A model generated the notes under the pieces. It was not told where the DNA came from and made no database searches. It saw nothing but the letters and a program-made list of their open reading frames with translations. A stretch of 63,573 bases of DNA, counting the filler, from Folioceros fuciformis (Eukaryota): assembly GCA_049999805.1 (NCBI GenBank). It is 5 parts of 4 records of this genome, joined end to end, with 100 filler letters (N's around TTAATTAATTAA, not from the genome) between each part and the next. Parts side by side here need not be neighbours in the genome. Positions count along the whole stretch, not along the records: positions 28,539 to 44,415 come from JBNGIO010005602.1; 4 more parts are not named here. One strand, written 5' to 3'. A program made the position numbers and the translations under genes. Shown here piece after piece: positions 11,576 to 44,515 of the stretch. How positions within the stretch are numbered: the first letter of the stretch is position 1; every line of letters begins with the position of its first letter.

Positions 11576-12151
11576 CTAGAGGACTAAGCCTCGGCGGTAC
11601 AGCTTTCCATCTTCTCTATTGCAAGCTCGAAACTCCTCCCTTGCACGGTAACCTGCATCAGGAGATGATGACCTACTAGAAAGTTCCTGCACATCTTTGA
11701 ATTTAGAGAGATTGGACACCCTTACCCCAAGTTCTGTTAGTTTTCTCTTGAATTCAAGATGTTGAATTGTTAGAGAAGATAATTCTCTATCTAGGTCATG
11801 AATTTGGTGAGTTTCTATATTTTGGCCTTGTAGACAAAAGAATTTAGAAGCGTTAGCACCAGCTCTCAAATTAGGGATATGTTGAATAGCTAATTCTAAG
11901 GCCTTAACATGGATTGGGCTAAATACTTCTAGCAAATCACATCTAGCAAGCTTAATCAACTTCCCTTGGTCTGGTTTAGAAATTAGAATAGATGCAATGA
12001 AGTTAGCTATGCGAGAAGATATCTCATCTATCTCTCTTGCTATAATTTGTGAACTTCTATTGCTCTTAATCCTAACTTGATCTTGTTGTCTTGCAGGGCA
12101 ATTTCTTTTCCTAATTCTAGGCCTCCTCCTATTAAAAGAAATCAAATCCAT
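11576..12151 (-). CDS. Accessory ORF0 of copia C (191 aa, basic N-terminus, heptad-like C-terminus)
   Basis: Intact ATG-to-stop ORF between PBS and gag; MDLISFNRRRPRIRKR...FSPIHVKA...TIQHLEFKRKL. Confidence 0.7.
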   Translation of the reverse strand: MDLISFNRRRPRIRKRNCPARQQDQVRIKSNRSSQIIAREIDEISSRIANFIASILISKPDQGKLIKLARCDLLEVFSPIHVKALELAIQHIPNLRAGANASKFFCLQGQNIETHQIHDLDRELSSLTIQHLEFKRKLTELGVRVSNLSKFKDVQELSSRSSSPDAGYRAREEFRACNREDGKLYRRGLVL

Positions 12152-12465: not shown

Positions 12466-12547
12466 ATAAGTGGTTGTAACCATAAGTAGTTGTAACCGTA
12501 AGTGGTTGTAACCGTAAGTGGTTGTAACCGTAAGTGGTTATAACCAC
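12466..12547. repeat. 16-bp tandem repeat x5 inside the LTR of C
   Basis: taagtggttgtaaccg units. Confidence 0.9.
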
Positions 12548-12644
12548 TATAGCTAATAACTACCTAAGTAACCCTAGGTAGATAATTAAAGTTAAGAGGC
12601 CCTAATGAATAGTGCCCTAAATCTAGACTTATTTCATCAATTAG

Positions 12645-13734: not shown

Positions 13735-13959
13735 TTTGTGTTGCTTTAAAATTCTAACCCTACCTTGGAGCAGGTTCTAAGCTTAGTTAGTTTTTTTTTT
13801 TTTTTTTGTAGGTGTACTACAAGAGTGTTCAGTCTGACTTCAAAAGGTCAATGATGCTGCTAAGTACCTTTTCAGTTGGCTCTAGAAGTTGTAACATTTT
13901 TCTAGAGGTTAAGGCTGCTGGTTCAAGATTAGGTTGATATGGGCTGCTACAAGGTATGT

Positions 13960-14492
13960 AAGAGACTACAGGATCACAACTAGAGTAAACTGGTTTTGAT
14001 GTGGGTTCCAAAAGATATGTTTGGTTTCTAGCCAGTTTAATTTAGATACTAGTTGACCTAGTTCCTTACGTAGCAGAATATTATCAACTTTTGCTTTGCT
14101 CTTCAATTTGGAAAATTTCTCTTCTAACACCTGGATTTTATATGGTAAAGGTGTGAGGAGATTCTAGACAAATTTACTATATTTTATAGTGCCTTGCTTA
14201 CCTCTATTGCTATTATCCTGATTTAATATGAATTGGGGAAAATGACAAGGTGTGTTGTGACAATGACTGTTACAACATCTGGTAACACAAGTAGATGTTT
14301 GAGGTACGCTGCATCTACAGGGTTATAATTTGTGATTCCTTGTCATTTCCACTGCCAGGTTAGGTAATTAGCATAGATGTTGAGTAATGTTTGAAGAAAA
14401 AAGTGCTAATTTCAAGCAACATTACTGAATTCTGCCTGATTTCCTTGTATGTAGTCACTGGAAAGATCTCAAGTGACAAGAGAGGGAGCGCC
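13960..14492 (-). pseudogene. Degenerate ORF0 homolog in the copia B leader
   Basis: Frameshifted fragments FSPIHIKS and KIQVLEEKFSKL match FSPIHVKA and TIQHLEFKRKL of C ORF0. Confidence 0.55.
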
Positions 14493-14573
14493 TCAACTTC
14501 ACCTCTAAATCTATTTATAATTATGAAGTTAGGGCTGGACTTATAAATAACAAACCTATTATTTAATAAATGG

Positions 14574-19061: not shown

Positions 19062-19066
19062 GGGCA

Positions 19067-19252
19067 TTTGTTGTCGAGTAGTGTACGACCTCTTGGCTCT
19101 CTGCACTATAGTCGGGCATCTGTTGTCGAGTAGTGTACGACCTCTTGGCTCTCTGCACTATGGTCGGGCATCTATTGTCGAGTAGTGTATGACCTCTTGG
19201 CTCTCTACACTATGGTCGGGCATCTATTGTCGAGTAGTGTACGACCTCTTGG
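19067..19252 (+). repeat. 52-bp tandem array (~3.6 copies), target of element A
   Basis: Units start at 19067, 19119, 19171 and 19223; the unit end ctctacactatggtcgggca also precedes A at 6189-6208. Confidence 0.95.
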
Positions 19253-21416
19253 CGACCCCCTACATAGATCTGTAGAAGATAGCATGGACACAATCCATCA
19301 ATAGAAATCAAATCCAAATTGATGGATGGACAAAAAAAAAAAAAAAGACAAATACATCCTAGAATGGCCAGGATGGGCTTGCCCCCCCCTGGGCCATATC
19401 AAAAGGAAAAGAAACATTGCATAAATTCTAGTTGAGGATCCCCCATCCAGGCCCTGATCGAGCTCAAGGGCGCTCAACCGCGGAGTTCGAATGTGACTTA
19501 TGACACCAATCCCCGCTATCCTTTGGGTTTGTGTTTTGAGGTTCTTAGATTCAATATATCAAGGGTCAGACCTATATATGGATTTAAAAGGGAAGACGGG
19601 GGACAAGCAGGGCATCCCTCCCCCGTCCCCCTCCAATTCCTGCACCTCAGCCCGCCATCGCGATGGATCGGCGCCGCGACCTCACCCTCCGACAATCCTC
19701 CTACACTAAAATTCGCAAGTATCTCAGGCACCTCAAATTGCTCAGGCGCCGACGGGCAGGGGCCAATGTGCAAATTCCCAGATAGGACGACGTTGATGAC
19801 ATTGCACTTGCTATTTATCCTCTAGCCCCCGTGTGGATTGTCTCCTTCACGGGTTCACGGAGGATGGCCCAGGAATTGCAGGAGGCTACCTGGCCCCCTG
19901 CAATTTGCAGCCCAAGACCTGGGAGAGGAGTTCCTGCATTTGCCCCTCATAGGGAGGGCTGGACAACTGCCTCCCCATGTTTCCTGTGCCTGCACTTGTC
20001 CATCTCCGCAGATTTCTCGAGGAGNNNNNNNNNNATTGCTTTCAGCACGGATTCTCTGAGGACGACATGTCCCTGGGAGCTTCACGAAGCCCTCTGCCTC
20101 TTTCGATCGATGGAACGCCTTAGGATCATCACAATCGCTGGAGAATTGGCCAAGGATTTGGGCCCAATCTTGAGCACCTTGCTTCCTGCAATCCGGTAGA
20201 TCTAGCCCCAAATTCCGTGATTTTAGGCTCCAATTCTGAGCACAAAAGCGCCCCAAGGCATCCAACCCTCAGGGCACCAGCATCTGGAGGCATCAAGGAG
20301 GACAAGCTCCTCCGGGCGCTCCAATCGGCTTCCTTTTTGCGCTCAAATTACTGATCCCTTCCCTGCTTGTGATTTAGCTCGAGCCACAGGGTGGGCACAT
20401 CTTCCGAGCACCTTAGATCATCATGAGGATCATAATCCATCTCTAAAGATCGAGCCTCCTTCACCTGTTGCTGAGCATTCCCAAGGACCCCTTTTCGACC
20501 TGGCAGAGGAGCTAACAGAAGCAAACACCTCGGTCAACACGTCGACTCTCTGGGATCAACTCGCTTTCAATTAACGCTCCGGCTGCCATGGCTAGTACTT
20601 TCTCCACCAGCTCGATTCCCGTCTTTACTGACCACATCAGAGAGAAAGATCGATTCAACGGTAGCTATGTGGTGCGTTCGGATGAAGTCGATCCTTATTG
20701 GCCGAGGTGTTTGGAAGATCGTCGACGACACCCTTCCAAAGCTCAACCCTTCTACCACTCCACCCCCGCCAGTCGTCGTCGTTGAGAGATGGGACTATTT
20801 GAATGGGATAGTTGTGGCACTCCTGATCAGCGGCCTGGATTCAAGTCTTGTGCCTAGTGTTGAATTTCTCTCAGATGCATCTGCCATTTGGGACCAGTTG
20901 TCTAACACCTACAATGTTAACAATGTTCTAACCTTGTATAGTGTAAGGTAGGAATTCAACTCCTTAAGGATGAAGGAGACAGATACAATCTCTGCTCACA
21001 CCTTGAAGTTCCGACCACTGCGAGGGCAGCTCGCCTCCCTTGGCTCAACCATGTCGGAGACCAATGCCGCTACACAGCTGCTTATGAGCTTACCATCGTC
21101 TTACTAGAATTTTGTTACCAGCTTGATGTTGGTATCAACTTAGGGTAAGATAGGTACCGCCCTAATAAAAATATACCTTTAGTTAGGTATGTAACCTAGA
21201 CATATGACGAAAGTTATTTAGGATTATTAAACAAATACTTTATATATGACTCTTTTGTTTCTTTTTTCTTGCTGAACGTTACTATTCAAGTCTTCTTGTT
21301 TTTAGCTCTCGCGCTCTATGTTTCATGATGTCAAGCTGCCTTGACTACAAACCCGCGTTTCCTATTCTTGTTATGGTATTAGAGCCTGGCTCACTGGTAA
21401 TTATGTTCTAGATGCG

Positions 21417-21929
21417 ATGCCGAGGAATAGGTCCACCAACGGATCTGGAGGTAGAGGAGGTTTTTTGAAATCCTTCTCTAGGCTTGCCCACAAATCGCCT
21501 GTTTGCTCGTGTACCCCTTGGCCTGGTGCTGATTTTCAACCTGAACGAGACCACTCTCATTCAGAAAGATGCTTTTCTTATGGATGTCACAACAAATTCT
21601 CTACGGCATCCCATACAACTGTTGTAATACCTTGTGACACTTGCGGGCGCCTATACAGACCTAGTCAATCTTCTTTGAGGCGATCCCCTTGAGCACCTCA
21701 TCCCTGCACAAGGAGCACTGTTTCCCCATCGACCTCAATTGGAATGTTGGAAGGATTATTAAATGCAGTAGTTCAGCGACAGGAATCTTTCGGAAAGCGG
21801 CTAGACTCAATAGATCTCAAGATTCACAGATTTGCTGTCAGATTTTCATCTGAAATCATGAAATTGACTCAGCAACTTCATATCTTTAATGACATTTTGC
21901 GTTCCTCTACTGAGGAGTGCCTCGATTAA
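21417..21929 (+). pseudogene. Accessory ORF0 of E, one premature TGA at 21690
   Basis: ORFs 21417 and 21744 share a frame; MPRNRS...PHPCTRST...LEGLLNAVVQRQESFGKRLDSID...SSEI aligns to F ORF0. Confidence 0.65.
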
Positions 21930-22387
21930 TTTCCTGTTTTTCCAGTTGCTCTAGGGATGGTGAATGATCATGGTGACTTCTCCAGGTGTTGGAATCTTTG
22001 TGTCTCCCCCACATCTCTTGCTTCTGTTGGCCTAGCACTAACTGTTAATAACCGTTTCCATTGAACTCGCCAGTGCCCTAGAAAAGATGTTAGTATGTTA
22101 GTTTTCTTTTTTCCAAACAACCTGCTGACAAGTCACAAAACCCTAACTGCTTACATGTCAGATGGTCGAGGACACCCCAGATGTCGACAAGGGACTATTT
22201 CTTTAACTTCCCTGCGACTCCTCATCTACGTCATAGATTAGACACTGAATATGATGATCTAGGTACCCCTGCAGCTAGTACCATCAATCCTACTCGTGCT
22301 CCTTCACCAATTCCACCTATTCTTCCTCCTGTGCCACCTCCTCTGAACCCACCTTTGTCACCAATACCACCCGTTTCACCTACCAAC

Positions 22388-25300
22388 ATGGCTGCTGCTT
22401 CAACACCAACCTTCACAGCAGAGCTAAAAGAAAAAGACAGGTTTAACGGGAACCAGTATGAAGTATGGCGTGTTCCGATGAGGTCCAATCTTCGTGCAAG
22501 AGGAGTATGGGTAGTAGTAGATGGCTCATCCCCACAACCTATACTACCTATTGCTGGAGTTGCTGCTCCAACTGGAGGAAATCCAGTGACACAAGACAAT
22601 GTGGACAAGTGGAACAATCTTAATAGCGTTGCTGTTGCTATTTTAATCTCTGGACTTGATGAAGTCCTAATCCCTGACGTAGAGTACCTAACCAAGGCCC
22701 ATGAAATATGGAGTTAGCTTGAGAACACATATGCCGTCAAAACTATGTTGACCTTATGCGCTGCAAAGCAAGAATTCTATGCTCTAAGGATGCGAGAAGG
22801 AGAAAGTGTGGCTGCCTACACAAGCAAATTTTGTCACCTTCGCTCGCGCCTTATCCAGCTGAACTCCACTATGACTAAAGAGGATGCAGTTGCCCAACTA
22901 TTGCTCAGCTTGCCTGCCTCGTATCACACGTTTGTATCACTCCAGAATGGACCCCTTGCTACAGTAGGTCAGAGTAGATAAGTAGGAAATCAAGTTAATC
23001 TAACTCTGGAGAGCATTATAGCTGCACTTTACCAGGAGGAGCATAGCCGACTTCGATTTCATTCCAATGGCTCTGGAAAGACCCGAGCAAATCGAGTTAT
23101 GTACACCTCACGTCAGCGTGGAGGTTTCGGGAGAGGACGTGGCAGAGGAGAAAAGTTCTCATCTTCTGGACAACAACAACAACAAACCTCCATTGCTAGT
23201 CCTTCTTCTTCTACTAAGAAACCCGGCAATTGCAACTGGTGTAACACCCCTGGGCATTGGGAGCGGGACTGCCGCAAAAGAAGGCTAGAGAGCCTCGTCG
23301 ACCCAAGCTAGAGGTTAACTCTGTGACCAAAGAGAAATCCCCAATCGAAGGAGGCAAAGCACTTATCAAGATTTTCACTATCTGCCTATCCTCATCTTCA
23401 AGTGATCCTAGAAGCTCGTATCTTGACTCTTGCGCTACTGCGCATATCTACAAAGATAAACGCCTGCTCAGCAACTACAAGGAGATCTACAACTCTAATC
23501 AGACTGTTCTACTCGAGGATGAACAGAAATCGACAAGTTTGGCGATCAAAGGTCATGGTACATGCCGTTTTTTAATGACAGACAATTCAGTTCTGCATGT
23601 TCCAGGGATTCTTTATGTACCTGGTATGGCGAAGAATCTCCTCTCTGTTAGGTTGCTCGCCATTCACCACAACTTGAAGTTTCATTTCTTTGGCACCACT
23701 TGCGAAGTATTCAGATGAGGTTCAAGTCCATGCATCGGCAAAGGAATTCCTGACGCAGAATTATATTGCCTGGATGCTATATGTCAAGTCCCCTCTGCAG
23801 CTCCGGTTGGTTCAGCAACCTCTCCAGCTTACCTACCAACAACAGAACAAGCCAAGTTATGGCATGCTCGCCTTGGACATGTGAACAAGAATTCACTAAT
23901 TAAAATGTCGACTGGAGACTACTATGCTAAGCCCTTGCCATCTTGCTTCAAGGACTTACCTTTATGCAAAGCCTATTTAATTTCTAAACAACGAGAGAAG
24001 GCCTTTACACATTTTGGTTTTTGCACTTCTGCCATTCTGGATTTGATACATACTGGATTTGCATCTCTGGCAAGTTGCAGACCAAGTCCATTGGTGGTTC
24101 TTCATACTATTTGACAATCACAGATGACTTTAGTCGCTACACCTGGACTTACCCAATGGCTAAAAAGAATGATACATTCACCTGTTTTCAAGAGTGGCTT
24201 CCTATGGCGCAACAACAATCTAGACGTTCTCTCAAGTGCAGACAATGGGACAGAGTTCTGCGACAACTCTTTTGACCAGTACCTCCAGGAGCGTGGCATC
24301 ATCCATCAGCTCACAGTTCCTTACACCCCACAACAAAACGGGGTTGCGGAGCGTAAGAACCAAACTCTGATGGGTATGACGAGAAGTATGCTTAACTGGG
24401 CAAATTTACCTGCTCCGTATTGGGCCGAAGCAATTGTAACAGTGACCTACATTTTGAATCGACTGCACACGACATCCCTCATAGGCAAGACTCCTTTCGA
24501 AATGTTTTGGGGTCGTAAACCTAGCATTCTTCATCTTAGGGTTTTTGGATCCACTGCTTTTGCCTACATACCACAAGCAAAACATCAGAAGCTAGATGAC
24601 AGGTCTAGATCCTTGCTATTTGTAGGCTACAGTGAAGAAGCCAAGGCTTACAAACTCATAGATCCACTTACCCTTATCCCTACTCTCGCTCGTAGTGTGG
24701 TTTTTAAGGAACTTTTAGAGCCTGGCTTCCCCACGCGACCTGGTGTCAATGTTGATTCCGATTTCTCTGACAATGATGATGTCCCTCCTGATACCTCTGA
24801 CTTTGATCCTAATCCTGCTCAGTTTCCACAAGGGGATCCCATTGGTGCTCCACTCGTCCCAGCTCCTGCACAGCCTATTGGTCATGACCCTGACTTGGAC
24901 CCCAATTTTGTCACGGTTCTTGACCCTGTCCATCCTGATCTCGACCAACCTCTTGATGCACCCCTCCAGCCTCTTGAGCCTCCCCTTGACTTACCAGCTC
25001 AAGAGGAGGTCCCTGCTGCTCCGCCTGTTGTAGTTGATCCTCCCGTAGCTCCCCCTAGACGCTATCCCCTCCAAACTAGGCTTCCTTCTTCTCAATGGGC
25101 TAAACCTCCTTACTCCTCCATTGATTTTCGCCCCTCCGCCAGTGCTGCAACTCCAGCTCGGAGTTCTCCCCTTTTACTTGACCCTGCTGCTATGGATGAA
25201 GCCTATTTTGGCCCAGATGCTCACCATTGGCAAGTTGCAGTAGAGGAGGAATACCAGTCTATCCTTAAAAATAAGACTTGGATACTTACAGACTTGCCAC

Positions 25301-26761
25301 CTGGTCGGAAAGCCGTGACGTGTAAATGGGTCTTTAAGACCAAGTTGAATGATGAAGGTGACATAGTCAAATACAAGGCCCGTCTTTGTGCTCGTGGTTT
25401 TACTCAGGTCTTTGGTTTGGACTACCAGGAGACCTTCTCACCTATTGTCAGAGCACAATCTGTTAGGATACTGCTTGCTGCTGCTGCTGAGATGAACCTA
25501 GAATTACACCAAATGGACATGTGTACAGCATTCCTGCATGGTGAAATAGAAGAAGAAATATATATGGAACAGCCCCAAGGTTACGTGGACAAACGTTTTC
25601 CAAATAAGGTTCTAAAACTGCTAAGGGCCCTGTATGACCTAAAGCAGAGGGCTATGCTATGGAATAAGAAGCTGGATGAGGAGCTCAAAGCATTAGGTTT
25701 TGTACAGAGTGCTGCAGACTCATCTGTTTATTATTTGGTCAATGACACAGCCTTCTGTATCCTCGCTGTTTATGTTGATGATTGCATGTTTGCATGCTCC
25801 GACATCAACCTGCTCAACAAAATCAAGAATCTTCTTAGTAGCAATTTTGAAATGAAGGTATGTGGGGGCTCTTAAATTCTGCCTTGGTGTTCAAGTACTG
25901 AGGAATAAGGAGCAAGGACTCATCGTTATTCACCAAAAGAAGTATCTCACGAAAATCCTGAAGCGTTTTGAGTTGGACCAGGCTCGACCAGTCTCCACTC
26001 TAGGCTCTGTGGGAGTTAAGCTTACCTCTGACCAGTGCGCCAGTACCCCTGAAGAAATAGCAGACATGGAAAAGGTTCCATACAGACACGCAGTTGGGTG
26101 TTTGATCTTCATTTCCAATTGGACCCGCCCTGACATTGCACACTCTGTTAGCTGCGTCTCACAATTCCTAGAAAAACCTGGACGTGTTCATTGGGCAGCT
26201 GTGAAGAGGATTTATCGTTACCTGAAGGGTACGATGCATTTTGGCATAATCTAACCAGTAAGGTTCTTCTCCTGGATTAATTCTTTCGGCATATACAGAT
26301 GCGGATTGGGCATCTGACTCATATTCCCGGAAGAGCTTATCCACCTATTGTTTCCTGCTTGCCGGAGGAGCTGTAAATTGGTCCTGCAAGAAGCAAACAT
26401 CTATAGCTTTATCTTCTACCGAAGCAGAATACATCTTCCTCACTGATTCTGCAAAGGAAGCAGAGTGGGAAAGGTCCTACCTGAAGGATCTTCACCTAGA
26501 GCAGACAGATCCCACCACTATCTTTTGCGACAACAACTCTGCTATTGCCCTTGTCGCCAATCCTCGTTCCATGCAAGGACAAAGCATTTCGAGATTAAGC
26601 ATCATTATATACGAGATATTGTATCAAGAGGAGTAATTACGGTGGTATATATTCCGACTACTTAGAACACTGCAGACATCTTGACGAAAACGTTGCCTAA
26701 GTTGAAGCACTCTATTCACAGAGAGTCCCTAGGGCTTAGAGACTTTAGCTACCTACTTTGA
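22388..26761 (+). pseudogene. pol: Copia E gag-pol, disrupted
   Basis: KEKDRFNG, CNWCNTPGHWERDC, YLDSCATAH, DNGTEF, QQNGVAERKN, YKARLCARG, YVDD. Confidence 0.95.
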
Positions 26762-28482
26762 AAGCTATGAGCTTTGCTTATTGACCTGAAGGGTGTGGGG
26801 GGGGTGGGGACCTAAGTCCCCAGATCTTCAAGATCTATGTAAGTTATGTCCTGCAGATCACAGCCTCCGCTGGTTTCCCCTCTCCACCAGCTTTCCTTTC
26901 CAGTGTGTCTTGTGACACAATGCACGTACAACGATTAGGTTAGCTAGGCAGTCTACTCATGGGTGACAAGTTGAAGCATAGATGGAGCTCACAGGTTTTG
27001 TTTCTAGTCTTTCTTCTTCTATCCTTCGTCGTTCTATGGGAGTCTCTTTTCTTCAGTGCCCACAACTTTCTTTGTGTCTACCTTTGTCTTCTCCCCTTCG
27101 TCTGCTGGTAGCGGCGTGCTCACGGTTTCTGTCCATCTCACTCTCATGCCCCTGAGAGAGTCGGTTCCCCTAGCAAGTCGGTGGTGGGCTCCTTCTTCAC
27201 TCCTCTTCACTTCGACCTTGTATTTATTTCGCACTGTGATTCTTGCTGCAACATCCACTTCCCATTAGCAGCTGGACATGAGCTGCTGGAAGCTGAAAAG
27301 GCTTCCATTCCATCTGTTTCCCCAGCTGGTTTTGGTCAGCCTGCACCCTGGCTGTACGTTTTCTCTTGGGCCCTGTCGCCTCCAGTCCTCCCTCTGGTCT
27401 GTAGCATCATCCACTTTTGGTAGCCATATTTTCACGTCAGTAGACGAACGCGAAGTAGGCAGCTAGCAGGACAACGACAAGTGCAAGTGTTTGAGATATG
27501 GCGCCGCCAGGGAATTTGCCCGTGATCACACTAAGGGGAAAAGCGCCCGTTACGTGTACTGCCTAGGTTATGTGGGAGTGATAAAAATATACCTTTAGTT
27601 AGGTATGTAACCTAGACGTATGATGAAAGTTATTTAGGATTATTAAACAAATACGTTATATATGACTCTTTTGTTTCTTTTTTCTTGCTGAACGTTAGTA
27701 TTCAAGTCTTCTTGTTTTTAGCTCTCGCGCTCTATGCTTCATGATGTCAAGCTGCCTTGACTACAAACCAGCGTTTCCTATTCTTGTTACGCCCCCACCC
27801 TAACAGTGGAGGACAACATTGGTGCTCTGTATCAGCAGGAGCAGAGCCGCTTATGCAGGAGGGTCCAAGCCCGAAGCAGACAGGGCGCTTTCCACCCGCT
27901 TCAAGCTCGGGAGGAATTCGAAGGGCGAGGCAAATTTCACTCCTGAAGGTGATTTAACCTCTACCTCTCCTCGTCGAGCTCGAAACTGCAAATGGTGCGG
28001 AGCTGCCGGCCATTGGGCACGAGAGTGCTGCAAGAAAGAGGCCAGAGAGCCGCAGACGGCTGACTTGTGACAGGCAGCCAGTATTGCAATTAAGGGGAAC
28101 GCCAGCACAGTGGAGACAAGAACCGTAAAGATACTTACGGCTTGCCTCAACACCCAGTTGCATCAGGATGGGGGTGGTATCTGGACAGTGGAGCCACCGC
28201 CCACATATGCAATGATCGTACTCTATTCACCAAGCTGGATACTTGTCTTCTTAAGGAAAGGGTTTTACTTGGTGACAAATAGAGTAGATCCAGCCCGCCA
28301 ATCATGAGACAAGGCACTTGCGAACTTCCCCTCGAGGACGGTTCAGTGCTTACCTTGGAGCATGTGCTCCTAGTCCTACAGATGGGCAAGATGTTGAGAG
28401 TAAAAGCCAACACATAGTCTAAGTAACGTTAGGGTTAGNNNNNNNNNNNNNNNNNNNNNNNNNNNNNNNNNNNNNNNNNNNN

Positions 28483-28494
28483 TTAATTAATTAA
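28483..28494. other. Artificial contig linker TTAATTAATTAA inside Ns (also 44460-44471, 52650-52661, 61484-61495)
   Basis: Identical six-frame-stop 12-mer centred in N runs at four sites. Confidence 0.95.
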
Positions 28495-28663
28495 NNNNNN
28501 NNNNNNNNNNNNNNNNNNNNNNNNNNNNNNNNNNNNNNTTTAAACAATTTTGTTATGCTTATTATTGTAACTTTAACTGTCAGAATTTCTCTATGCTCTC
28601 GCTCCACTCAACCTTCTCATGGTATCAGAGCCATGCTTTGGTTCTTGAGTGATTCTCTCAAAA

Positions 28664-29314
28664 ATGCCGAGACAAGGCAGATCTAATAGAGGTTTACGTT
28701 CTGGTGGATCATCACGAAGACAACGTCGTGAGGGACGTCCACCAAGACAAAATACAGCACTAGTACCTTTGGATACGGTGCTTGACCTTTATGAACACGA
28801 TTACCCTCATCTTTGGCAGCAGCGATTCATTGCTCAAAGGCAGATATCACCTGGCCCATCTTGGGAGTTGAATAGGAACCAACAAATTGACAGGCTCTAC
28901 AGGGAGCGTTGCCACAGAAGGGGACAGAATCCCGACCTATTCTACAGCCCTCCAACAAATTCTGTATCTGCCCCTGACATTCTGATTGCCCGACGGCCTG
29001 AATCTTCCCGTCGGCCTCAACCCTGCACACACAGCACAAATCGCGGATCAAACAGTGTTGCTGATAGAGCACATGCTATTCTGATTCGTGTGGAGAAAGT
29101 GTTGTCTCTATCACTTTCCAACCAGGAGATCCTCAAGAACAGAGTGGAGACTCTTGATGCTTACACAGAGCAAGCAATTTCAACTTGCAAGAACGAAATT
29201 CAGAGGGACATCAATGACTCATCTGAATTCTTGCTTATGATGCACCTAAAAATCCAGGAATTGGAGCTTGGGTGCCCATATGCTGATGATGATCAGCCCA
29301 TTCTTGCTCTGTGA
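28664..29314 (+). CDS. Accessory ORF0 of F (216 aa, Arg-rich N-terminus, coiled-coil-like C-terminus)
   Basis: Intact ORF starting 33 bp after the PBS; MPRQGRSNRGLR...PQPCTHST...VEKVLSLSLSNQEILKNRVETLD...KNEI. Confidence 0.75.
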   Translation: MPRQGRSNRGLRSGGSSRRQRREGRPPRQNTALVPLDTVLDLYEHDYPHLWQQRFIAQRQISPGPSWELNRNQQIDRLYRERCHRRGQNPDLFYSPPTNSVSAPDILIARRPESSRRPQPCTHSTNRGSNSVADRAHAILIRVEKVLSLSLSNQEILKNRVETLDAYTEQAISTCKNEIQRDINDSSEFLLMMHLKIQELELGCPYADDDQPILAL

Positions 29315-29893
29315 GATCTTCCGCTGCCATTGAGCGGAGTGCCCTGGATCAGGAGCAATTTTCTGCTCAGATCTGAAGCGTCACCTTTCAGACGGTGCCT
29401 GTTTCGTTTAATCTCTCTTCCTGTGTGTTGATAGGTTCTTGCGTAGAGCTGCACTTGTTCACAGGCAAGGGACATCACAGTTAGGGTTTTGTTTTTGTTT
29501 TTTTTCTTTGTGCATGCTTTCTTGTAAATTGAAATGTCATGCAAATGCTGGTTTGAAACCCTAACGACATAACTTAAACGTTATTCTTGAAAGGAGGTGT
29601 CTGTTCACACCTGCGCACCTAGGAAGGTGGATGAGGGAGCTAGCCTGTGAGGGATTAGATGCGTCTGTATTTACCCCCCCCTCAGGCTGTCACCCTCACC
29701 CAACCCCCTGGAGACGCATCGTTAGTCTGCAAGAGACATAGTCTAGCAGCTTGCACATATGAGCACTTACCTGTCCAGCAACTACCATAGTTTTCGCTGT
29801 CTTTCAAGTGCCTTATGTCCACAGCTCCTCAGCTGAATTCAGGGTTACCCCACCACAGCTCCTCAGCTCCATTTGCTGTAAGCCCAGATCAAC

Positions 29894-32800
29894 ATGGCCA
29901 CTCACTCTGTCTCTTTTAGTTCAGATGTAAAGGACAAGGACAGGTTTAGAGGTACTGGCTACTCAATCTGGCATGTCCGGATGAAAACCATACTTACAGC
30001 GCGTGGTGTCTGGTCTAGTGTTGATGGTTCTCTCACGAAACTTGACCCACAATCTAAACCTGATGAGTATGCCAAGTGGGAGCACAATAATGGAGTTGCT
30101 ATGGCCGTCATTGTCAATGGGCTGGATGCCGCACTTATTCCTAATGTAGAATTTCTTGCAACGGCGAAGGACATCTGAGATCAGCTGGAAAAGACCTATC
30201 ACACCACCACAATGGCCACATTGTCAGTTGTGCGCATGGAGTTCTACACTTTACGCATGAAGGAAGGAGACAAAATGGCTGCACATACCAGCAAGTTTCG
30301 CCACCTTTGAGCACAAATTCAGTCCATCACCAAAACACAAATGACAGAGTCTGAAGCTATCTCCCAACTCCTTACCAGCTTGCCACCCTCTTATCAATCT
30401 TTCGTTACAAGTTTCCAGACTGGTCCAGTTGCCGCAGCCGCAGCTGCTGGACAGCAGGCTGCCCCCATTACCATGGAGGACATGATCGGAGCCCTCTACC
30501 AAGAAGAGCAAACTCGTTTGGCCTCAGCTGGCCTGCACAAGCAATCCAAAGGGGAAAGGGCTTTAGTTGTGAATTTTTGCCCTAAAGGAAAGGGCAAATT
30601 CAGAGGGGGAAATTCCCCAGGACAAGCCAAGGATAGGATTGAATCTTCAAGTTCTAAACGACCAGGCACATGCAACTGGTGTGGCATACCTGGCCACTGG
30701 GCACGCGAGTGTCGCAAGCGTAAAGTTGGTGAGCCCCAGAAGCAGGCTAAACCTGCTGCAAGTGTTGCAGTGAAGGGCAAACCTGTTGAAAAGGCGCTAG
30801 TCAAAATCCTCACCATATGTTTGTCAAGCTCGACACATGATGATGAGAGCTGGTACCTTGACTTCGGGGCTATCACACACATCTGCAAAAAGAGGGAGTT
30901 GTTTACCTCACTCAACCTTGTTCATGTCCATGAAAAGGTACTCCTTGGTGATGAGCAGTCTAGAACTAGTCTGCATATTGAAGGCAGAGGCACGTGTTTT
31001 CCATCTGAAAGATAACACAGACCTCACCATCGAAGATATTCTCTTCGTACCCAGCATGGCTAAAAACCTCATGTCGATGAGTCAGCTCATGCGTCTACGC
31101 ACCTTCACTATGTATGCTGACTCTAAGCACTGCTTGTTCTATAGAAAGGAATCTCCTAGTAGGTGTGTCTTTAAGGGGATTTTAGATAACTCCCTTTACC
31201 GCTTGGACATAACCTGTTCACAACAGGAAGCTAGTCAACATGTTGCACACTCCACTGGTACCCCTTCCCTCAGTCCTGAGCAGGAAGCAGTGCTGTGGCA
31301 TGCGAGACTAGGACATGTGAACAGACGAAAATTGATTGATATGCCCATTACAGAGTGTCACAGAGAACCCCTGCCCAAGTTTTTTAAAAATTTACCTCAA
31401 TGTGAGTCGTGCATTCTAGCTAAACAGAAGGAATCACCCTTTCCGAATGCACCTGCACAAAGAGCTACACAAGTACTTGAGTTAGTCCATGCAGATATCT
31501 CAGGCAAGATCCATTCCCCATCTTTAGGTGGATCTCAATACTTTTTCACATTAACAGATGATTATAGCAGGTATACATAGACATTTCCCATGCGCCTAAA
31601 GAGTGAAACTTTTGAGTATTTTAAGGACTGGCTTCAAATCGCACAAAGGCAATCTGGAATGCTGGTCAAAACTCTAAGGACTGACAATGGCACGGAGTTC
31701 GTCAACTCATCTTTTGACAGTCTTCTTCAGGAACATGGAATTCTCAGGCAGCTTATGGTTCCCTACACACCCCAACAGAATGGTGTGTCAGAACGCAAAA
31801 ATCAAACTCTACTCGGGATGACTAGAAGCATGCTCATCTGGGCAGGTTTACCTCAAGGTTATTGGGCGGAGGCTGTGGTGACAGCAACCTACATCCTTAA
31901 CAGGATATTGACAAGTTCAGTTCCCAACAAAACACCTTATGAGGTCTTTTGGCGCAAGAAACCATCATTGCTACATCTGCGAGTGTTTGGATCACAGGCA
32001 TTTGCTTACATACCTGTTGAGAAAAGGCGGAAACTTGACCCTCGAGCACAAGGCTTGCGTTTTGTTGGGTACAGTGAACAAACTAAAGCATACAAGCTAT
32101 ACAATCCTAAATCTGGATCCATGTTGCTTGCTCGAAGTGTTACTTTTCTTGAGCCACATGCCCCTGTTCCACAATCCTACACAGGGACAGATGCTTTAGT
32201 TCAGAACATCTCTAAAACACCAGATCCGGATGACTTGGAGAACGAGGGGGCTTCCACTTACCCTCTTGACGATATGGATCCTGAAGACATAGTTCCAGTG
32301 GAGGATTTCGCAGTTGAACCTGCCAATGATGCTGCTGCCGATGATCAACCACCTCCTGCACTTGATGTGCCTCACCCTGATGTTGCTGCTGGTCATCACG
32401 ACAACTTCAATCTGCAGGATGACCTGGATCTTCACTTGGGCGATCACCACCCTCCTGACAATGAGGGGGATGCTCTCCCCATTCCAGACAACGCAGGGGG
32501 ATGCTTTTAATGCGCTTAATGATCATGTTGATGTTGCCCCTGTTGACGAGCCACCGGCAGAGGAGCCTGTACTTCGACGTTCCACTCGGCACAGGCCCCC
32601 TCCCGACCAATGGGCAGAGCCCCGCTACCAGTCTATTGATTTTCGTAAAACCTCTTTTGCTAGAGCTGCTGCCTTGGCTACTGCTCGCCCCGATATTCCA
32701 GAGGAGCCAACTACTTTACAGCAGGCCTTTACTGGTCCACAGAGTGAACAGTGGAAGGCTGCAGTGGAGGACGAGTACCAATCTCTCATTAAAAACGAGA

Positions 32801-34287
32801 CTTGGGCACTTGCAGACCTCCCACCTGGACGAAAGGCAATCAGCTGTAAGTGGGCTTTTAAAATAAAGCTTAATGCACAAGGACAAGTGGCCAGATATAA
32901 AGCAAGGCTCGTGGCTCGTGGGTTTACCCAAGTTGAAGGTCTCGACTACCAAGAGACTTTCTCTCCCGTCGTTCGCACGCAGTCCATAAGAATCCTTCTT
33001 GCATATGTTGCCGAATTTGATCTGGATTTACAGCAAATGGATGTTTGCACGGCCTTCTTATATGGTGCCCTTGAAGAAGAGCTATATATGTTGCAGCCTG
33101 AAGCCTATGAAGACAAGCGGCACCCGAACAAAGTGTTAAAGCTTCTTAAGTGCATATACGGTTTGAAACAAAGCGGGCGTGTCTGGTACATTACAATGCA
33201 TGTGTACCTGATCAGCATCGACTTCATCCAAAATGCAGCTGACAGCAATGTGTACAAGCTCACACAAGGAGTTTCGATTGTCATCCTGGCTCTTTATGTG
33301 GATGACGTCATATTTGCTACAAACGATCAAAAGCTGTTAGCAAGTGTGAAGGACAAACTCAGCAGCAGATTCGACATGAAAGACATAGGGGAACTTAAAT
33401 TCTGTCTTGGAATACAACTGCTTCGTGTAAGGGAAGAAGGGTTACTCTTTATCCACCAGTATAAGTACATAAATGAGATACTCAAACGATTCAACCTTGA
33501 CGAGGCCAGGCCAGCCACCACTCCTTATGCTGCTGGTACAAAACTGACCAAGTACCAGTGCCCACAGTCACAAGCTGAGAAATTGGACATGCAGGACATA
33601 CCTTACAGGCATGCTGTGGGGTCCCTAATTTTTGTTGCGAACTGGACGCGCCCTAACATACAGTATTCTGTTAGTACAGTTTCGCAGTTCTTAGAAAATC
33701 CTGCTAGGGTACACTGGGTAGCTGTCAAGAGAATATTTCGTTATCTCAAAGGTACGCACAAGTATGGACTTATGTATAAGAGCACAGGACAAAAACAAGT
33801 TATCTTGAGGGGCTTCACTGATGCCGACTGGGCATTGGATTCAGATTCACGCAGGAGCCTATCCACATACTGCTATTTGCTGGGTTCAGCAGCAGTCACA
33901 TGGAGCTGCAAAAAGCAGGCGTCTGTTGCCCTGAGTTCTTCTGAAGCTGAGTACAAGTCTTTTACTGAAGCAGCAAAAGAGGCTGAATGGGAACGCAGCT
34001 TCCTCAAGGACTTGGGACAGCCGCAGGAGAAACCAACCCTTGTGCTCTGCGACAACACTGCAGCCCTTGAGTTAGTTGAAAGCTCAAAATTCCATACCCG
34101 AACGAAGCACATTGAAGTGCAACATCATTACATACGGGATGTGGTCCACAAAGGTGTTCTTAAATTGGATTACATACAGACAGATGAGAACAGTGCTGAC
34201 ATCCTTACAAAAGGATTGCCTAAGTACAAGCATTACTATCATATGGAAGGCATGGGACTGCGGGATTGTTCTGCCTATTTCGAGTGA
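29894..34287 (+). pseudogene. pol: Copia F gag-pol, few stops and frameshifts
   Basis: DKDRFRG, CNWCGIPGHWAREC, WYLDFGAITH, LRTDNGTEF, YVDD, FTDADWA, RTKHIEVQHHYIRD. Confidence 0.96.
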
Positions 34288-34499: not shown

Positions 34500-34904
34500 C
34501 TACTCCTCATCCCTCAGCCTGCTGAGCATCTTTGCTACACCTTCTAGCTGCTCCACCAGGCTCTGCTTGCCCTCCTTGTCTTTAGCAGGTGTGGGCGGGT
34601 TGACAACAACCTCCTCTTCTGCCATCTTGCCCCACACAAGTGAAATATTCAGCTCCACGTGGTATCCACCAATGCATGTGTGCTGGCCGGTGCAGTAGCG
34701 GCTCTCCCACTCCCAGTCTTTGGCCATATCCTCCCGGGACGCCGGTTGGGTGACCGAGTTGAGTAGTGAATCCACAGAGTCCACAAACGCGTGAGGATGA
34801 AGAGCGCGAGTTGAGATTTGGCGGTTAGCACAGCCAAGTGGAGCCCCATCCTTATAGTCGCGACCTTGATTGCAGAGCAGAAGCTGGATCGCCAGCCCAA
34901 CCAC
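34500..34904 (-). CDS. Candidate antisense ORF (134 aa) in the 3' region of F
   Basis: Open antisense frame between the pol stop and the PPT; no homolog recognised in the window. Confidence 0.35.
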   Translation of the reverse strand: MVGLAIQLLLCNQGRDYKDGAPLGCANRQISTRALHPHAFVDSVDSLLNSVTQPASREDMAKDWEWESRYCTGQHTCIGGYHVELNISLVWGKMAEEEVVVNPPTPAKDKEGKQSLVEQLEGVAKMLSRLRDEE

Positions 34905-35467
34905 CGGATTACGTTCAAGCGCGTGAGGGAGAGACTGTTCCTCGTGACGTCCAGCTGCCTGGTTCTCGTGAGAAGCCCTTCGTTTTCAGGGTTTTGTGTT
35001 TTACTTAACCGTGGTTAGTTTAAGAGGGGGTGTTAGCGTAGGAGTTAAGCCTAACGCACAGTTAATAATATTTATGTTATATGGATTAGGGTTGTCTAGT
35101 GAATAGACACGTACATAGTATTTAAACAATTTTGTTATGCTTATTATTGTAACTTTAACTGTCAGAAGTTCTCTACGCTCTCGCTCCGCTCAACCTTCTC
35201 ATAGGGCCAGGAGCTCATTGGTGGCAGGATGTGCTAGAAGTCTAAATAAGTGGCTGGTGATAGACGGCTAGGCTAGTGGTCCTATTAAAATAATATTTCT
35301 CAAGTTAGAGAGAGGTGAAGTCAGAGAGAGAGAGGCTCCTATAAGATCAGGTGAGCCTGTAGGGGGAAGTAGTCATTCACTTTGGGAGTCAATCTATCAC
35401 TTCGTGAGCTCTTGGAGGTCCTCTCTTCACGAGCTCTTGTGGTCTGTCCCTGCTTGGTTTAGGACCT

Positions 35468-40025: not shown

Positions 40026-43000
40026 TGTTAGAGTTTTCTAGAGCGGAGAGCTTGAGAAAATCAGAACAATGGTAGGCAAAAGAATAATACATTACAATTA
40101 ACAAAAATGTTTAAATACGTAAGTAAAGTGTCTCTTCATATTAGGGCTAATTAATCAAGGCTAATTATGGTAAATATATTATCAACCCTAATCTAATGAC
40201 GTGGTTACCAAGACCTCGTAGGTCTCTTAACACACCCCCTTAACCACGACAGACTAACGCAGTTCGGAGGACACGTCATACAGCCACGGTCAAACAAGCA
40301 GCAGGAAATCGCGATTAAATACAGCAAAGGAGCTTCATCCGCGAGAGCCTGATGCGCCTAACGTGAAGCAAGTCAAGAGTCCAAAACCTGTTGAGAGGCA
40401 AAGCCAACATAATCCACAAGCCCCATCTGATCACGAAAGAAAGAATGCTTGGATGTCGGCAAGGCCTTGGTAAGCAGGTCAGCAACATTGAAATCTGTTG
40501 ATACATAAGAAATCTTGACAATTTGCCTTTCAACGGAGTGTCGCACAAAATGATGCTGAATTTCAATGTGTTTTGTGCGGGCATGGAAACGCGGGTTTCC
40601 AACCAAAGCAATGGTAGACTGATTATCACAAAACACCGTTGTGGGTTGTGCTTGTGGAAACAAGAGGCCAGCCAAGAAACTACGCTCCCACTCTGCCTCC
40701 TTAGCAGAGTCTGTAAGAGCCTTATACTCGGCTTCCGTGGAGGACAAGGCCACGGATACTTGTTTCTTTGAGCTCCAATTTACAACAGCTCTAGATAAGA
40801 AGAAGCAGTAGGCTGACAAACTCCGACGGGTTTCAGGGTCTGTGGCCCAATCGGCGTCGGCATACCCAACGAGTGTGAAATTTGAATCAGGTGAGCCAAG
40901 CCGATAGCAAAGACCATAAGTTGAAGTTCCTCTAAGATATCGCATTACACGCTTGACTGCACTCCAATGATCTTTACCAGGTTTTTCCAAAAATTGGGAC
41001 ACTGAACTAACTGCATGTTGAATGTCAGGCCGTGTCCAGCAAGCAATGTAATTAAGGCATCCTACAGCATGCCTGTATGGAACATCCATCATGGCCTGTT
41101 GCTCTTCTTCACTTTGTGGTGACTGCTGTGAGGTCAGCTTAAAACCTACAACCCCTGGTGTGCTAACAGGTTTCGCTTTGTCCAGATTGAAATGCTTCAA
41201 GGTCTCATTGATATATTTAGATTGATGCAGAATAAGAGTCTTATTGCCGCGGTCTCTGATTAGTTGAACACCAAGTACAAAGGTAAGTGCGCCAATATCC
41301 CTCATAGTATATCTTTTGTGAAGCATTTGCTTTACCCAATCCAAGAGCTTGCGATTATCAGAGGCAAAAATAGCGTCATCAACATAAGGCTAAGATGACA
41401 ACATGGCCATCTCTGGAATACAGATAGACATTCACATCAGCAGGGTTCTTGACAAAACCTATGGACTTAAGGTAAGCGTCTATGTTCTTGTACCATTCAC
41501 GGGCACTCTGCTTCAGCCCATAAATTGTCTTCTTGAGTTTACAAACCCACGTAGGATGTTCAGCGTCAACAAATCCTTTAGGCTGCTCTAGGTAAATTTC
41601 CTCCTCGAGCTCACCATACAAGAAAGCTGTTGAGACATCCATTTGTTCCAAGTCCCAATCGCGTGCAGCAGCTAGGGCTAAAATCATTCTGATGTCCACT
41701 GCATTTTGACTACAGGACTGAAAGTCTCAACATAATCTACACCAGCTACCTGCGAAAAACCTCGAGCGACCAATCTGGATTTATACCTAGCTATCTGGCC
41801 TTGAGCATTTAGCTCGTGTTTAAAAATCCATTTACAACTCACGGCCTTCCTTCCAGCAGGTAGGGGGCATAGCTCCCATGTTTCATTTTGTATAAGAGAA
41901 TTATACTCATCTTGTATGGACGGGATCCAATGATCCTTATCCTTACCAGTGACAGCTTCCTGATAACTGTGGGGTTCGGCAGGATGATCTGTACAGGAAG
42001 AGAACACTAGAGATGGGTTTTGTGTCAGCTTGGACGATTTAGGGATTCTAAAATCCACTGACTCATATGGTTTCTTTTGCCACTGATCCCTAGGGTTTCG
42101 GATTCTGCTTGGGTATCTGCGTTCTTCAGTCACTGGGACGGGAGCATGTAAGACAGGGGACTCAGGAACATCAGGAACTGAGGTGCCTGGGGCTTCATCA
42201 ACATCATCATCAGAAGACGCAGAGGAATGAAGAAGATCAGGTGAGTCTTCAACTAAAGGAAATTCGCCTAAGTCATCAATCTGTGCTGCAGGGGGTTCAT
42301 TGTCTTCAGCATAGTCTTCAGCACTTGCATCACTTGGCAGCCCGTGTGTGTCATTTAATTCAGCGGGATCATCTGGCTGGACAAGAGAATGACCTAAAAC
42401 AGGCAAGTCAAGTGGTGCGGAGGAAGATGACGGTGCAGGGGACTGAGAACCACCCCCTGAACCACCAGCAGCAGCAGCAGGAGGAGCACCCCCTGAAAGG
42501 GGAACCATGTAAACATCCTGAGGATACTCCGAAACTTCAAGGTCAAAGTCATCAGCAGGAGAAGAAACAGCCGAAGAGTCAGCAAAATGAGGAACGGCCG
42601 GGCGGGTAAGCTCCTTGAAAGTAACACTGCGAGCAAAGGTGCAGGTACGAGACAGAGGATCATATAATTTGTAGGCCTTGGTCTCCTCACCATAACCCAC
42701 AAAAATGAGAAGCTTTGCCCGGTCGTCAAGTTTCTTGCGTTGTTTCTTAGGGATATAAGCATAAGCCGGTGAGCCGAAAACACGCAAGTGGAGGAGGCTG
42801 GGGCGGCGGTGCCAAATGACCTCAACAGGAGTCCGAGTCTCCACAGAACTAGTAAGAAGTCGATTTAGAATGTATGTAGCCGTGACAACAGCTTCAGCCC
42901 AGTAGGATTTATCCAAACCTGACCACTCCAGCATGCTGCGTGTCATTCCAAGTAATGTCTGATTCCTCCTCTCAGCCACGCCGTTTTGCTGCTGTGTGTA

Positions 43001-44415
43001 GGGGTTTGGAAATGATACAGGAAATGTGTCAGATTTACGCTCAAGAGGGAAAGTCCATGAATAGCGACTGTAGTCATCGGTAAGTGTCAGGTAATAGTGG
43101 GAACCGCCTAAAGAAGGCACTTGAATTTTGCCTGAGATATCTGTGTGCACCAGATCCAAGACGTTGGAAGTACGGTGAGCAACCGTAGCTGGAAAGGGGA
43201 GTTCCTTTTGCTTAGAAAGGACGAGGGAGTCACACAAGGCAAGTTCCTTAAAACAAGTTGCCAGCGGCTCACGATAACAGTCAGTGTTGGACATCTTAAT
43301 AAGTTTGTTCTTATTTGCATGGCCCAAACGGGCATGCCACAATTGTGCTAATTCTGACTGTGTGTAAGCAGCTGCAAAAATGCTGTGAGCAGATTGGCAA
43401 CATATATCTAGGCGATATAAGTCATCAACCAGAAGCCCACAAGCCACTGGACCATCAGCACCTTTATGGGTGAGCATGCAACCATCAGCTGTAAATAGCA
43501 GGTCAAACTGCCCAAGTTTCATCAACTGGCTAACCAAAAGAAGATGCTTTGCCATGGTAGGAACGTAGAGAACGTTGTCCAACTGCAGTGCAGAGCCATC
43601 CTTAAGTCGGAAAGTACATGATCCTGTACCAAGAATTCTCAAACCTGTTCGGGTAAGTTCATCTCCCAACAACACCTTCTCATTAGTATGTGTTGGAGAA
43701 AAGTTACTAAGCAAGTGACGATTATGGCAAATATGGGTTGTGGCACCCGAATCCAAATACCAAGAATCTGGCTCACAGATTGTGTTGGAATGGCAGACGG
43801 TCATCACAACTGGCTGCTTGCGAGAAGAAGAGGTCGGTGAAGACCTGTCCTTGGAAACTGAGTGGGCCTCAACCGTTTTCTGGGGTTTCTCGGCCTTCCT
43901 CGGTTCTCCATTTTTCTTCTTCTTGCATTTGCGCTCCCAATGCCCTGGAAACCCACACCAGTTGCAGATCGTTTTCCTTGCCCTGGCTTGGATACACCAA
44001 CACCAAGTATATTCTTAATTTTCCCTTGTGGTTTGTTCTTGTTAGAATACAGGACCTTATCAGCTTTTGTCTTTCCTGGTGTATGCATACTGCGACTTTG
44101 CTCTTCCTGTAGAAGGGCACCAACAATATCTGTGAAGGATATGTTGGGTACTTGTCCAGCAGCAGCAGCTTGTTGGGCAACACAAAGAGCTGCCCCATAG
44201 CTTGAAACGAAGGACGGATAACTATGGGGAAGACTAGTTAGAAGTTGAGCCACAGCGTCAACCTCGCCCAGCTGAGAACCAAGTGAGATCAGCTGTGATC
44301 TCAAGTGTCTGAACTTAGCCACGAAGGTGGCTACTTTCTCTCCCTCCTTCATCCGTAATGAGAAGAGTTCCCCACGTACTGTGCACAGTGTAATGATATT
44401 CCTCACATCATAAGT
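40026..44415 (-). mobile_element. Ty1/copia element J inserted in the H integrase; 5' end lost in the gap
   Basis: 3' LTR 40026-40232 (TGTTAAGAG..CTCTAACA on minus), PPT 40233-40242, gag-pol 40373-44415 with WYLDSGATTH, RT and RNase H motifs. Confidence 0.93.
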
Positions 44416-44515
44416 NNNNNNNNNNNNNNNNNNNNNNNNNNNNNNNNNNNNNNNNNNNNTTAATTAATTAANNNNNNNNNNNNNNNNNNNNNNNNNNNNN
44501 NNNNNNNNNNNNNNN

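Follow-up and report, generated by a model that had tools for sequence, protein, structure and literature searches.

An open reading frame between the primer-binding site and gag of two Ty1/copia elements in Folioceros fuciformis, a probable accessory gene in decay

We ask whether an extra reading frame found upstream of gag in two retrotransposons of Folioceros fuciformis is a gene of these elements. The window, that is, the whole stretch of 63,573 nucleotides from assembly GCA_049999805.1 analysed here, contains two related Ty1/copia elements, E and F, each with a sense-strand open reading frame (ORF) just after the primer-binding site (PBS), hereafter ORF0. As a rule, copia elements are regarded as consisting of gag-pol and little else, and an ORF0 open in families whose reverse transcriptases (RTs) are as far apart as 53% identity would show that accessory genes evolve in copia. 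A previous inspection of the DNA alone (the sequence-only reading) proposed that ORF0 encodes an oligomerising, nucleic-acid-binding accessory protein of a complex-retrovirus-like copia lineage. Weighing the evidence below, we give roughly two chances in three to ORF0 being a real, fast-evolving extra protein-coding gene of one Ty1/copia lineage that is now decaying. Coordinates of the elements are collected in Table 1.

The frame in F (28664-29314) is an intact ATG-to-TGA ORF of 216 codons that starts 32 nt past the PBS. In E, the frame in the equivalent position (21417-21929) has 170 codons, starts 31 nt past the PBS and is interrupted by one TGA. The motifs quoted in the sequence-only reading are all present: both products start with MPR, they carry PQPCTHST / PHPCTRST, and they share an ungapped block of 23 residues followed by 12 residues and EI. 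The two start codons also lie in a common context (ATGCCGAG), and a short upstream ORF in another frame overlaps each of them (28633-28686 in F, 17 codons; 21412-21468 in E, 18 codons).

Smith-Waterman alignment of the two ORF0 products gave a score of 66 against 30.8 +/- 5.0 for shuffled sequences. This score was reached by 1 of 20000 global shuffles, by 26 of 20000 window shuffles in which local composition is kept, and by none of 2000 in a smaller shuffle set. The C-terminal parts alone scored 55 (16 of 20000 shuffles), BLASTP between E and F returned E = 1e-4, and across the whole window the two frames are reciprocal best non-self tblastn matches. More specifically, the similarity resides in a single pair of frames: among the nine leader frame pairs, ORF0 against ORF0 stands at z 6.8 and the other eight, including two in-register shifted pairs, at z <=1.0. 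Nucleotide local alignment of the two leaders was not significant (26 versus 22.6 +/- 2.3, largest shuffle 30), the spacers that follow ORF0 showed no alignment apart from the gag start, and a control comparison between pol and the 3' long terminal repeat (LTR) of E and F gave z <=1.5 in all 18 frame pairs on either strand. These comparisons indicate that the ORF0 frames of E and F are homologous at the protein level and that their similarity is frame-specific.

Both carriers are Ty1/copia elements by their domain order (gag, protease, integrase, RT), LTR pair and tRNA-Met-type PBS. In F, the Pfam matches are Retrotran_gag_2, zf-CCHC and Pol_BBD (30311-31012), gag_pre-integrs (30801-31577), rve with SH3_retrovirus (31581-32507) and RVT_2 (32293-34284, E = 2.5e-70); in E, they are Retrotran_gag_2 (22094-22714), Pol_BBD (23245-23715) and SH3_retrovirus followed by RVT_2 (24115-25872). 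Each element measures about 6.6 kb with LTRs of about 170-250 nt, and their RTs are 53% identical. The LTR direct repeat spans 82 nt in F (28539-28620 / 35121-35202, 96% identical) and 209 nt in E (21165-21373 / 27581-27789, 97% identical). A tRNA-Met primer is used by most copia groups according to the REXdb survey (Neumann et al. 2019, PMC6317226). With up to two mismatches the tRNA-Met PBS pattern is found 6 times in the window, with 6.1 expected, and as it is not enriched the PBS call in F rests on its place beside the LTR. Only the last 81 nt of the F 5' LTR share a contig with ORF0, the rest being cut by a contig spacer. The contiguity of PBS, ORF0 and gag in F is confirmed by a 2042-nt Logan contig that covers 28600-30597 with 0 differences and possibly comes from the source sample itself. 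In both elements examined ORF0 is separate from the gag frame, the gag ATG lying 580 nt past the ORF0 stop in F (29894) and 459 nt past it in E (22388). The gag-pol of F carries 4 disruptions in 4394 nt and that of E is likewise broken; both are dead elements.

The openness of the frame was assessed next to its similarity. F has no stop in 216 codons where 10.9 are expected (0 of 20000 shuffles as low) and E has one in 170 codons where 8.6 are expected (23 of 20000), whereas the two alternative frames are interrupted over these regions by 6 and 17 stops in F and by 9 and 11 in E. An ATG-initiated ORF of the length found in F occurred in 2 of 2000 dinucleotide shuffles of the F leader. Tandem Repeats Finder reported no array within 21417-21929 or 28664-29314, and ORF0 is not of low complexity. 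A stop-free codon-usage score came to +0.047 for F and -0.056 for E; for the leader ORF of a third copia element, C, which lies on the minus strand and is described further below, it came to +0.066. The sequence-only reading had pointed to an ORF0 intact in F despite a broken gag-pol. Both halves of this statement are correct as observations, but the intactness carries no evidential weight, since 4 disruptions in 4394 nt predict about 0.6 in 651 nt, that is, roughly even odds of finding none.

A number of results weigh against ORF0 being a gene, and several of them speak for a non-coding leader, in which the frames would be open by chance and their similarity would be leftover nucleotide homology. 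With nucleotide identity set to 42%, neutral, indel-free simulations attained the score of 66 by itself in 95 of 1000 replicates, and with 46% in 409 of 1000. Identity by codon position was 0.37 / 0.50 / 0.39 in ORF0 versus 0.61 / 0.72 / 0.35 in the gag control; ORF0 is without the third-position drop of that control, its third codon positions being no more diverged than the first. Codon scores of 25 non-coding open frames extend up to -0.029 and thus span the value of E, although this control is itself biased. E already carries a stop, and both copies in the window belong to dead elements. The structure model of F ORF0 has a mean pLDDT (predicted local distance difference test) of 66.5 and is poor outside one helix. 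For gag to be translated, ribosomes would in addition have to get around the leader (by splicing, by shunting, by internal entry, or from a second transcript or promoter), because a 216-codon ORF and 19-20 AUGs (19 in F) lie ahead of gag in the leader.

The evidence base for ORF0 is also thin, consisting of two DNA copies (E and F) and one database fragment of 134 aa, and the scarcity of relatives belongs to the same side of the balance. A HMMER search of 1.84 billion representative proteins returned two matches, P0002 and P0003, and word-based protein searches returned none for F ORF0 (150 candidates) and only itself for P0002. P0002 is the 134-aa fragment; it stems from a single 1170-nt Logan contig and is 47% identical to F residues 1-85 (E = 8e-11). 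It has several short motifs in common with F, one of which is also found in E, and the in-frame TGA of E falls inside a short motif common to F and P0002. Because its second half diverges and is without the helix, the P0002 copy is probably damaged. P0003, a 1229-aa match, is a tandem-repeat product and was set aside as an artefact. In read runs containing window DNA, the leader (28600-29883) has a depth of 10-20 and the gag-pol bins have a depth of 100-400 from copies 80-90% alike, a contrast implying that relatives either lack ORF0 or have it diverged by more than 20%. One contig 85% alike over gag continues upstream into sequence unlike the F leader. Read from these sequences, either ORF0 would evolve much faster than gag-pol or it would be missing from the closest families. 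Patterns for related loci gave 17 matches in metagenome contigs and 10 in viral contigs, none of which was confirmed.

Against the non-coding leader stands the pattern as a whole. An ORF0 frame at 66 or above together with both other in-register frames at 40 or below had a neutral probability of at most 0.03 over the identity levels tried, so that neutrality is rejected only modestly, at about 0.03. A chance frame would further have to account for the openness, reached by so few shuffles next to frames full of stops, and for the adjoining leader sequence being unalignable, with z <=1.5 in all 26 control frame pairs. Taken together, we regard a non-coding leader as unlikely, and we retain the coding interpretation.

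Two further observations come from sequencing runs. A small run labelled as another organism (X3) contains a 238-nt contig of the ORF0 middle (28800-29037) with 3 differences, which could come from a close relative, a hybrid or mislabelling. In a run that we guessed to be RNA (X5), nothing fell on ORF0 and pol received just three short pieces that matched poorly, so that this run is uninformative on expression.

What would such a gene encode? The F product (24.9 kDa, isoelectric point, pI, 9.2) would be a basic protein of about 25 kDa built of three parts. The first would be an arginine-rich, probably disordered N-terminus that could act as a nuclear-targeting or RNA-binding patch: in F, the first 35 residues comprise 10 lysines or arginines and 1 aspartate or glutamate (pI 12.0), and in E the same stretch has 6 lysines or arginines. 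It is from this composition that nucleic-acid binding is suggested. The second part would be a fast-evolving middle with a few short conserved motifs. The third would be a C-terminal amphipathic helix of about 70 residues that may pair into a coiled coil (the last 90 residues of F have pI 4.7). AlphaFold2, run on F ORF0 with a three-sequence alignment, places a single C-terminal helix at residues 132-202 with pLDDT 90-98. Heptad spacing is best in windows that begin at residue 130 in F and at residue 105 in E; these coincide with the aligned blocks and agree in register, and their score is reached by 1 of 500 shuffles in E, a strong result, and by 40 of 500 in F, a weak one. The heptad-like block noted from the sequence alone sits in a helix predicted at pLDDT >90, with a periodicity that is clear in E and weaker in F, and the modelled ORF0 product has the long helix with hydrophobic heptad spacing that is looked for in a coiled coil. 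A two-copy complex prediction for F residues 125-216 scored 0.02 against a mark of 0.32, with controls not run, and speaks neither for nor against self-association. By eye, the hydrophobic pattern at the helix start resembles the consensus of an export signal.

Family searches did not place this protein. Pfam at the curated cut-off gave no match for the ORF0 of F or E, for the C leader ORF, for P0002, for an antisense ORF of F or for a fragment of element B, and the sole sub-threshold match of ORF0 was FoP_duplication, whose 14 bits (E = 0.084) fall short of the 24.6 required. The plant mobile domain (PF10536), Transposase_28 (PF04195) and Athila ORF-1 (PF03078) had no match in ORF0. Neither ORF0 matched a gag family, the copia gag N-terminal domain (Retrotran_gag_2 / DUF4219) included, even when E values as high as 10 were admitted; these families match the downstream gag. 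The PDB searched by sequence gave one match, a designed repeat protein at E = 0.57, and Foldseek against the PDB gave 0 at E <=0.001. In the ESM Atlas, the best score for F was 0.79, a level reached by a third of shuffled proteins, and there was no usable match for the C leader ORF.

A detached part of gag could also explain an orphan frame in this position: ORF0 would once have been the N-terminal extension of a longer Gag, or would be spliced to gag. The gag frame of E is open upstream to an in-frame ATG at 22181; starting there would lengthen gag by a proline-rich N-terminal stretch, which implies that gag N-termini vary in the E/F lineage, and the C leader ORF nearly abuts its gag. Nevertheless, a sizeable spacer separates ORF0 from gag in E as in F, the spacers are unalignable, an in-frame TAA lies 12 nt before the F gag ATG, and it is the downstream gag that is matched by Retrotran_gag_2, with no gag-family match in ORF0. 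We consider this origin highly improbable.

How does ORF0 relate to extra ORFs already described? Such ORFs of plant LTR retrotransposons are common, almost all of them functionally blank, and are known upstream and downstream, in sense and antisense orientation (PMC7264820). The sequence-only reading held that canonical copia elements have no ORF before gag and that 5' extra ORFs are typical of Ogre, a statement that needs correction. Extra ORFs of at least 250 codons were counted in 582 Ty1/copia elements (45 groups) and 3372 gypsy elements by Neumann et al. 2019 (PMC6317226), who also define a 5'-forward class, and Tekay chromoviruses have 5' sense ORFs as well (PMC11728184). In the first of these sources, the one copia feature singled out is the 3'-forward ORF of SIRE, present in 74% of SIRE elements. 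ORF0 resembles the copia extra ORFs of that survey in belonging to the same superfamily and to the 5'-forward concept, and those ORFs are highly heterogeneous, most of them without conserved domains. Against the definition of the 5'-forward class, ORF0 has the upstream forward position and no tandem repeats and falls short of 250 codons, and at 216 and 170 codons it would therefore escape the survey. Thresholds of this kind miss ORFs of ORF0 size, which is a practical gap. No published account of a copia element with a sense ORF placed between its PBS and gag came up in our full-text searches; the per-lineage supplements of REXdb may list one.

Among the close parallels are the extra ORFs that Tekay chromoviruses carry in sense orientation at their 5' end, described in PMC11728184 for Tekay 13-2 of sunflower and for RIRE3, RIRE8 and Retrosat-2 of rice. 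Like ORF0, they are sense ORFs between the 5' LTR/PBS and gag without a known domain; their proteins have a predicted nuclear localisation signal and, within largely disordered chains, a few well-predicted helices, and show no similarity between species. The carriers are Ty3/gypsy chromoviruses, whereas those of ORF0 are Ty1/copia, and the two were compared by description only. The sunflower protein has about 400 aa, is proline-rich and occurs in 500 of 523 elements, as opposed to 216 and 170 codons and two DNA copies for ORF0. With regard to Ogre, 57% of elements have an extra ORF with a plant mobile domain (PMC6317226). Those are giant gypsy elements and E and F are copia elements of about 6.6 kb whose ORF0 has no match to that domain. 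The likeness is one of position, as Ogre ORF1 (Ty3/gypsy, Tat clade) also lies 5' of gag and in sense orientation in plant LTR retrotransposons. ORF0 appears to resemble known extra ORFs in kind and belongs by sequence to none of the families tested (plant mobile domain, Transposase_28, Athila ORF-1, gag).

These comparisons bring in the possibility that ORF0 is a captured piece of a host gene, transduced into the leader of an ancestor and since then a passenger of no use to the element. LTR retrotransposons are known to transduce host sequence (PMC7264820), and the copia extra ORFs of the REXdb survey form 45 mutually unrelated groups that its authors read as acquisition from multiple sources (PMC6317226). 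No cellular relative was seen, however, among the 1.84 billion representatives or in Pfam, and transduced pieces are usually present in one or a few copies (PMC7264820). ORF0 is, moreover, common to elements only 53% identical in RT, which suggests that it was kept through a long transposition history. A passively carried host fragment is accordingly very unlikely in our estimation.

If ORF0 is instead a gene of the element, it would be a sense-strand extra ORF and the first long frame of the LTR-driven genomic RNA, from which it would presumably be expressed. The most likely role, which we put forward tentatively, is that of an accessory factor that would bind the element's own RNA or Gag as an oligomer, and might act in nuclear handling, in packaging, or as a switch between translation and packaging. 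The main alternative role would be to counter host silencing. A functional analogy may be drawn to the anti-silencing factor VANC21 and the TnpA-like protein of SPM, predicted to dimerise via a single long alpha-helix (bioRxiv 10.1101/2024.04.02.587720); these are non-enzymatic transposon proteins with a long helix, as ORF0 may be, and they belong to DNA transposons, a different class. With about 25 kDa, a basic tail and one long helix, ORF0 would be a small and tractable candidate for studying RNA handling, nuclear targeting or anti-silencing, and its present value is that of a lead, not of a settled finding.

The leader that ORF0 occupies could, alternatively, be read as a translational regulator, in which ORF0 would be a very long upstream ORF metering ribosomes to gag and its peptide would matter little. 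ORF0 is the first long frame after the cap in a leader with 19-20 AUGs before gag, the upstream ORF of 17-18 codons overlaps its start in both elements, and in C only 11 nt lie between the end of the leader ORF and the gag ATG, a distance that would be favourable to re-initiation. Such a function does not predict amino-acid similarity in one frame only or a conserved amphipathic helix in the same register, both of which argue for constraint on the peptide, and the gap of 459-580 nt to gag with its many AUGs in E and F is poor for re-initiation. Regulation by the frame as such is therefore quite unlikely.

As regards a bypass, some candidate signals were noted in the leaders. E has a donor-like GGTAAT at 21396, between PBS and ATG, and in both elements a T-rich tract is followed by AAACCCTAAC and then AG (F 29556, E 22138), a candidate signal. 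The telomere-repeat-like AAACCCTAA(C) lies 3' of ORF0 at 29556-29565 in F and 22138-22147 in E, each time after the T-rich tract; it might serve as a promoter element of the telobox type, or else as a branch point with acceptor. In the F spacer, GTTAGGGTTT / AAACCCTAAC form an inverted repeat (29480-29489 / 29556-29565, 66 nt apart). A hairpin shared by the two leaders was looked for and not found, F having six inverted repeats and E none.

A more specific version of the accessory-gene interpretation would make ORF0 a Rev/Rex-like protein, that is, a nuclear, arginine-rich, multimerising regulator of genomic RNA fate (export, packaging, or the choice between ORF0 and gag), with gag-pol made from a spliced or shunted form. 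In composition and model only, ORF0 has the likeness of a small basic protein with an arginine-rich N-terminus and a potentially multimerising helical region. Rev and Rex are made from spliced 3' exons, whereas ORF0 is a 5' leader ORF, and there is no homology. Rev/Rex-type roles have been raised merely as a suggestion, and solely for antisense 3' ORFs (PMC7264820). This version is a long shot; if true, it would mean a plant retrotransposon with complex-retrovirus-style gene control, and the non-homologous leader ORF of like build in C would suggest repeated invention of such a factor. The sequence-only reading had invoked antisense ORFs for a complex-retrovirus-like lineage, and this part of it is not supported: between pol and the 3' LTR, E and F are without similarity (largest z 1.5). 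F does have an antisense ORF of 161 codons there (34500-34985, minus strand), without a Pfam match, and because the matching region of E is dissimilar in all 18 frame pairs this ORF is not a feature common to E and F.

The leader ORF of element C provides a further case of similar build. Its length was reached by 0 of 2000 shuffles, it has 11 lysines or arginines in the first 35 residues, and it contains a heptad-rich segment with a score that 2 of 500 shuffles attain. The ORF is not similar to the ORF0 of F or E (scores reached by 904 and 1042 of 2000 shuffles, respectively) and is therefore an analogue, not a family member. A word-based protein search found none among 77 candidates, and AlphaFold2 without an alignment gave a mean pLDDT of 41, which is uninformative. 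In element A, by comparison, the leader is short and holds no ORF of this kind. The copia elements of this genome may thus have gained leader ORFs of similar build on more than one occasion, although these cases are suggestive only. The C leader ORF itself is part of a composite insertion inside element A (6975-14568, minus strand). This insertion is bounded by terminal repeats of 76 nt that are 99% alike (7132-7207 / 14493-14568). Inside it, a complete gag (13776-12637) is followed by an internal stretch that resembles an LTR and contains tandem repeats of 16 nt (12440-12561), and after these by a PBS, the C leader ORF and the start of a second gag. With 10-N gaps at 11256 and 13112, the insertion is either a recombinant or a mis-assembly.

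Table 1. Coordinates in the window of elements E and F and of the leader ORF of element C
Feature	Position	Strand	Basis or remark
F 5' LTR, 3' part	28539..28619	+	contig begins here, after N44-TTAATTAATTAA-N44 spacer; repeat and alignment
F PBS TGGTATCAGAGC, tRNA-Met type	28620..28631	+	exact match, directly 3' of LTR end
F ORF0, 216 codons, intact	28664..29314	+	ATG-to-TGA frame, openness, homology to E, AlphaFold2
F spacer, ORF0 stop to gag ATG	29315..29893	+	unalignable with E spacer
F gag-pol (gag, zinc knuckle, protease barrel, integrase, RT/RNase H)	29894..34287	+	five frame pieces
F 3' LTR (start approximate)	35031..35201	+	direct repeat and alignment
E 5' LTR (start approximate)	21127..21373	+	direct repeat and alignment
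E PBS TGGTATTAGAGC, one mismatch to tRNA-Met type	21374..21385	+	pattern match
E ORF0, 170 codons, one in-frame TGA at 21690-21692	21417..21929	+	homologous to F ORF0 (from protein alignment)
E gag-pol, broken (end approximate)	22388..27090	+	frame and Pfam matches
E 3' LTR, well-aligned part	27581..27789	+	direct repeat and alignment
C leader ORF, 191 codons, intact	11576..12151	-	PBS 12343-12354; stop 11 nt before gag ATG (11564)

The window is transposon-rich DNA from a eukaryote with plastids and is a chain of contigs joined by N44-TTAATTAATTAA-N44 spacers (28439-28538, 44416-44515, 52606-52705 and 61440-61539), so that adjacency across spacers is not assured. A third member of the E/F lineage, element G2 (40315-44415, minus strand), matches F at 56% in RT and 62% in integrase and is thus no more distant from F than E is; a contig spacer has cut off its leader and the N-terminus of its gag. 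A fourth copia element, D (20475-21126 and 27790-28395), has its gag interrupted by E, and F is apparently inserted in it too, across the spacer. The sequence just before the F LTR start reads as a copia protease (WYLDSGAT...), and the 43 nt before the spacer at 28439-28538 resemble the start of the F 3' LTR only loosely. A tandem array of 52-nt units (19062-19253) adjoins the 3' LTR of element A. A Ty3/gypsy element (52775-58211, minus strand) has LTRs 96% alike (52775-52981 / 58005-58211) and a PBS at 57589-57600; since its gag begins right after the PBS, it is without a leader ORF. Finally, a PAP_fibrillin-like ORF (49639-50250, E = 1e-11), with an exact tRNA-Met PBS motif after it (50427-50438), is a host gene fragment beside or inside another element.

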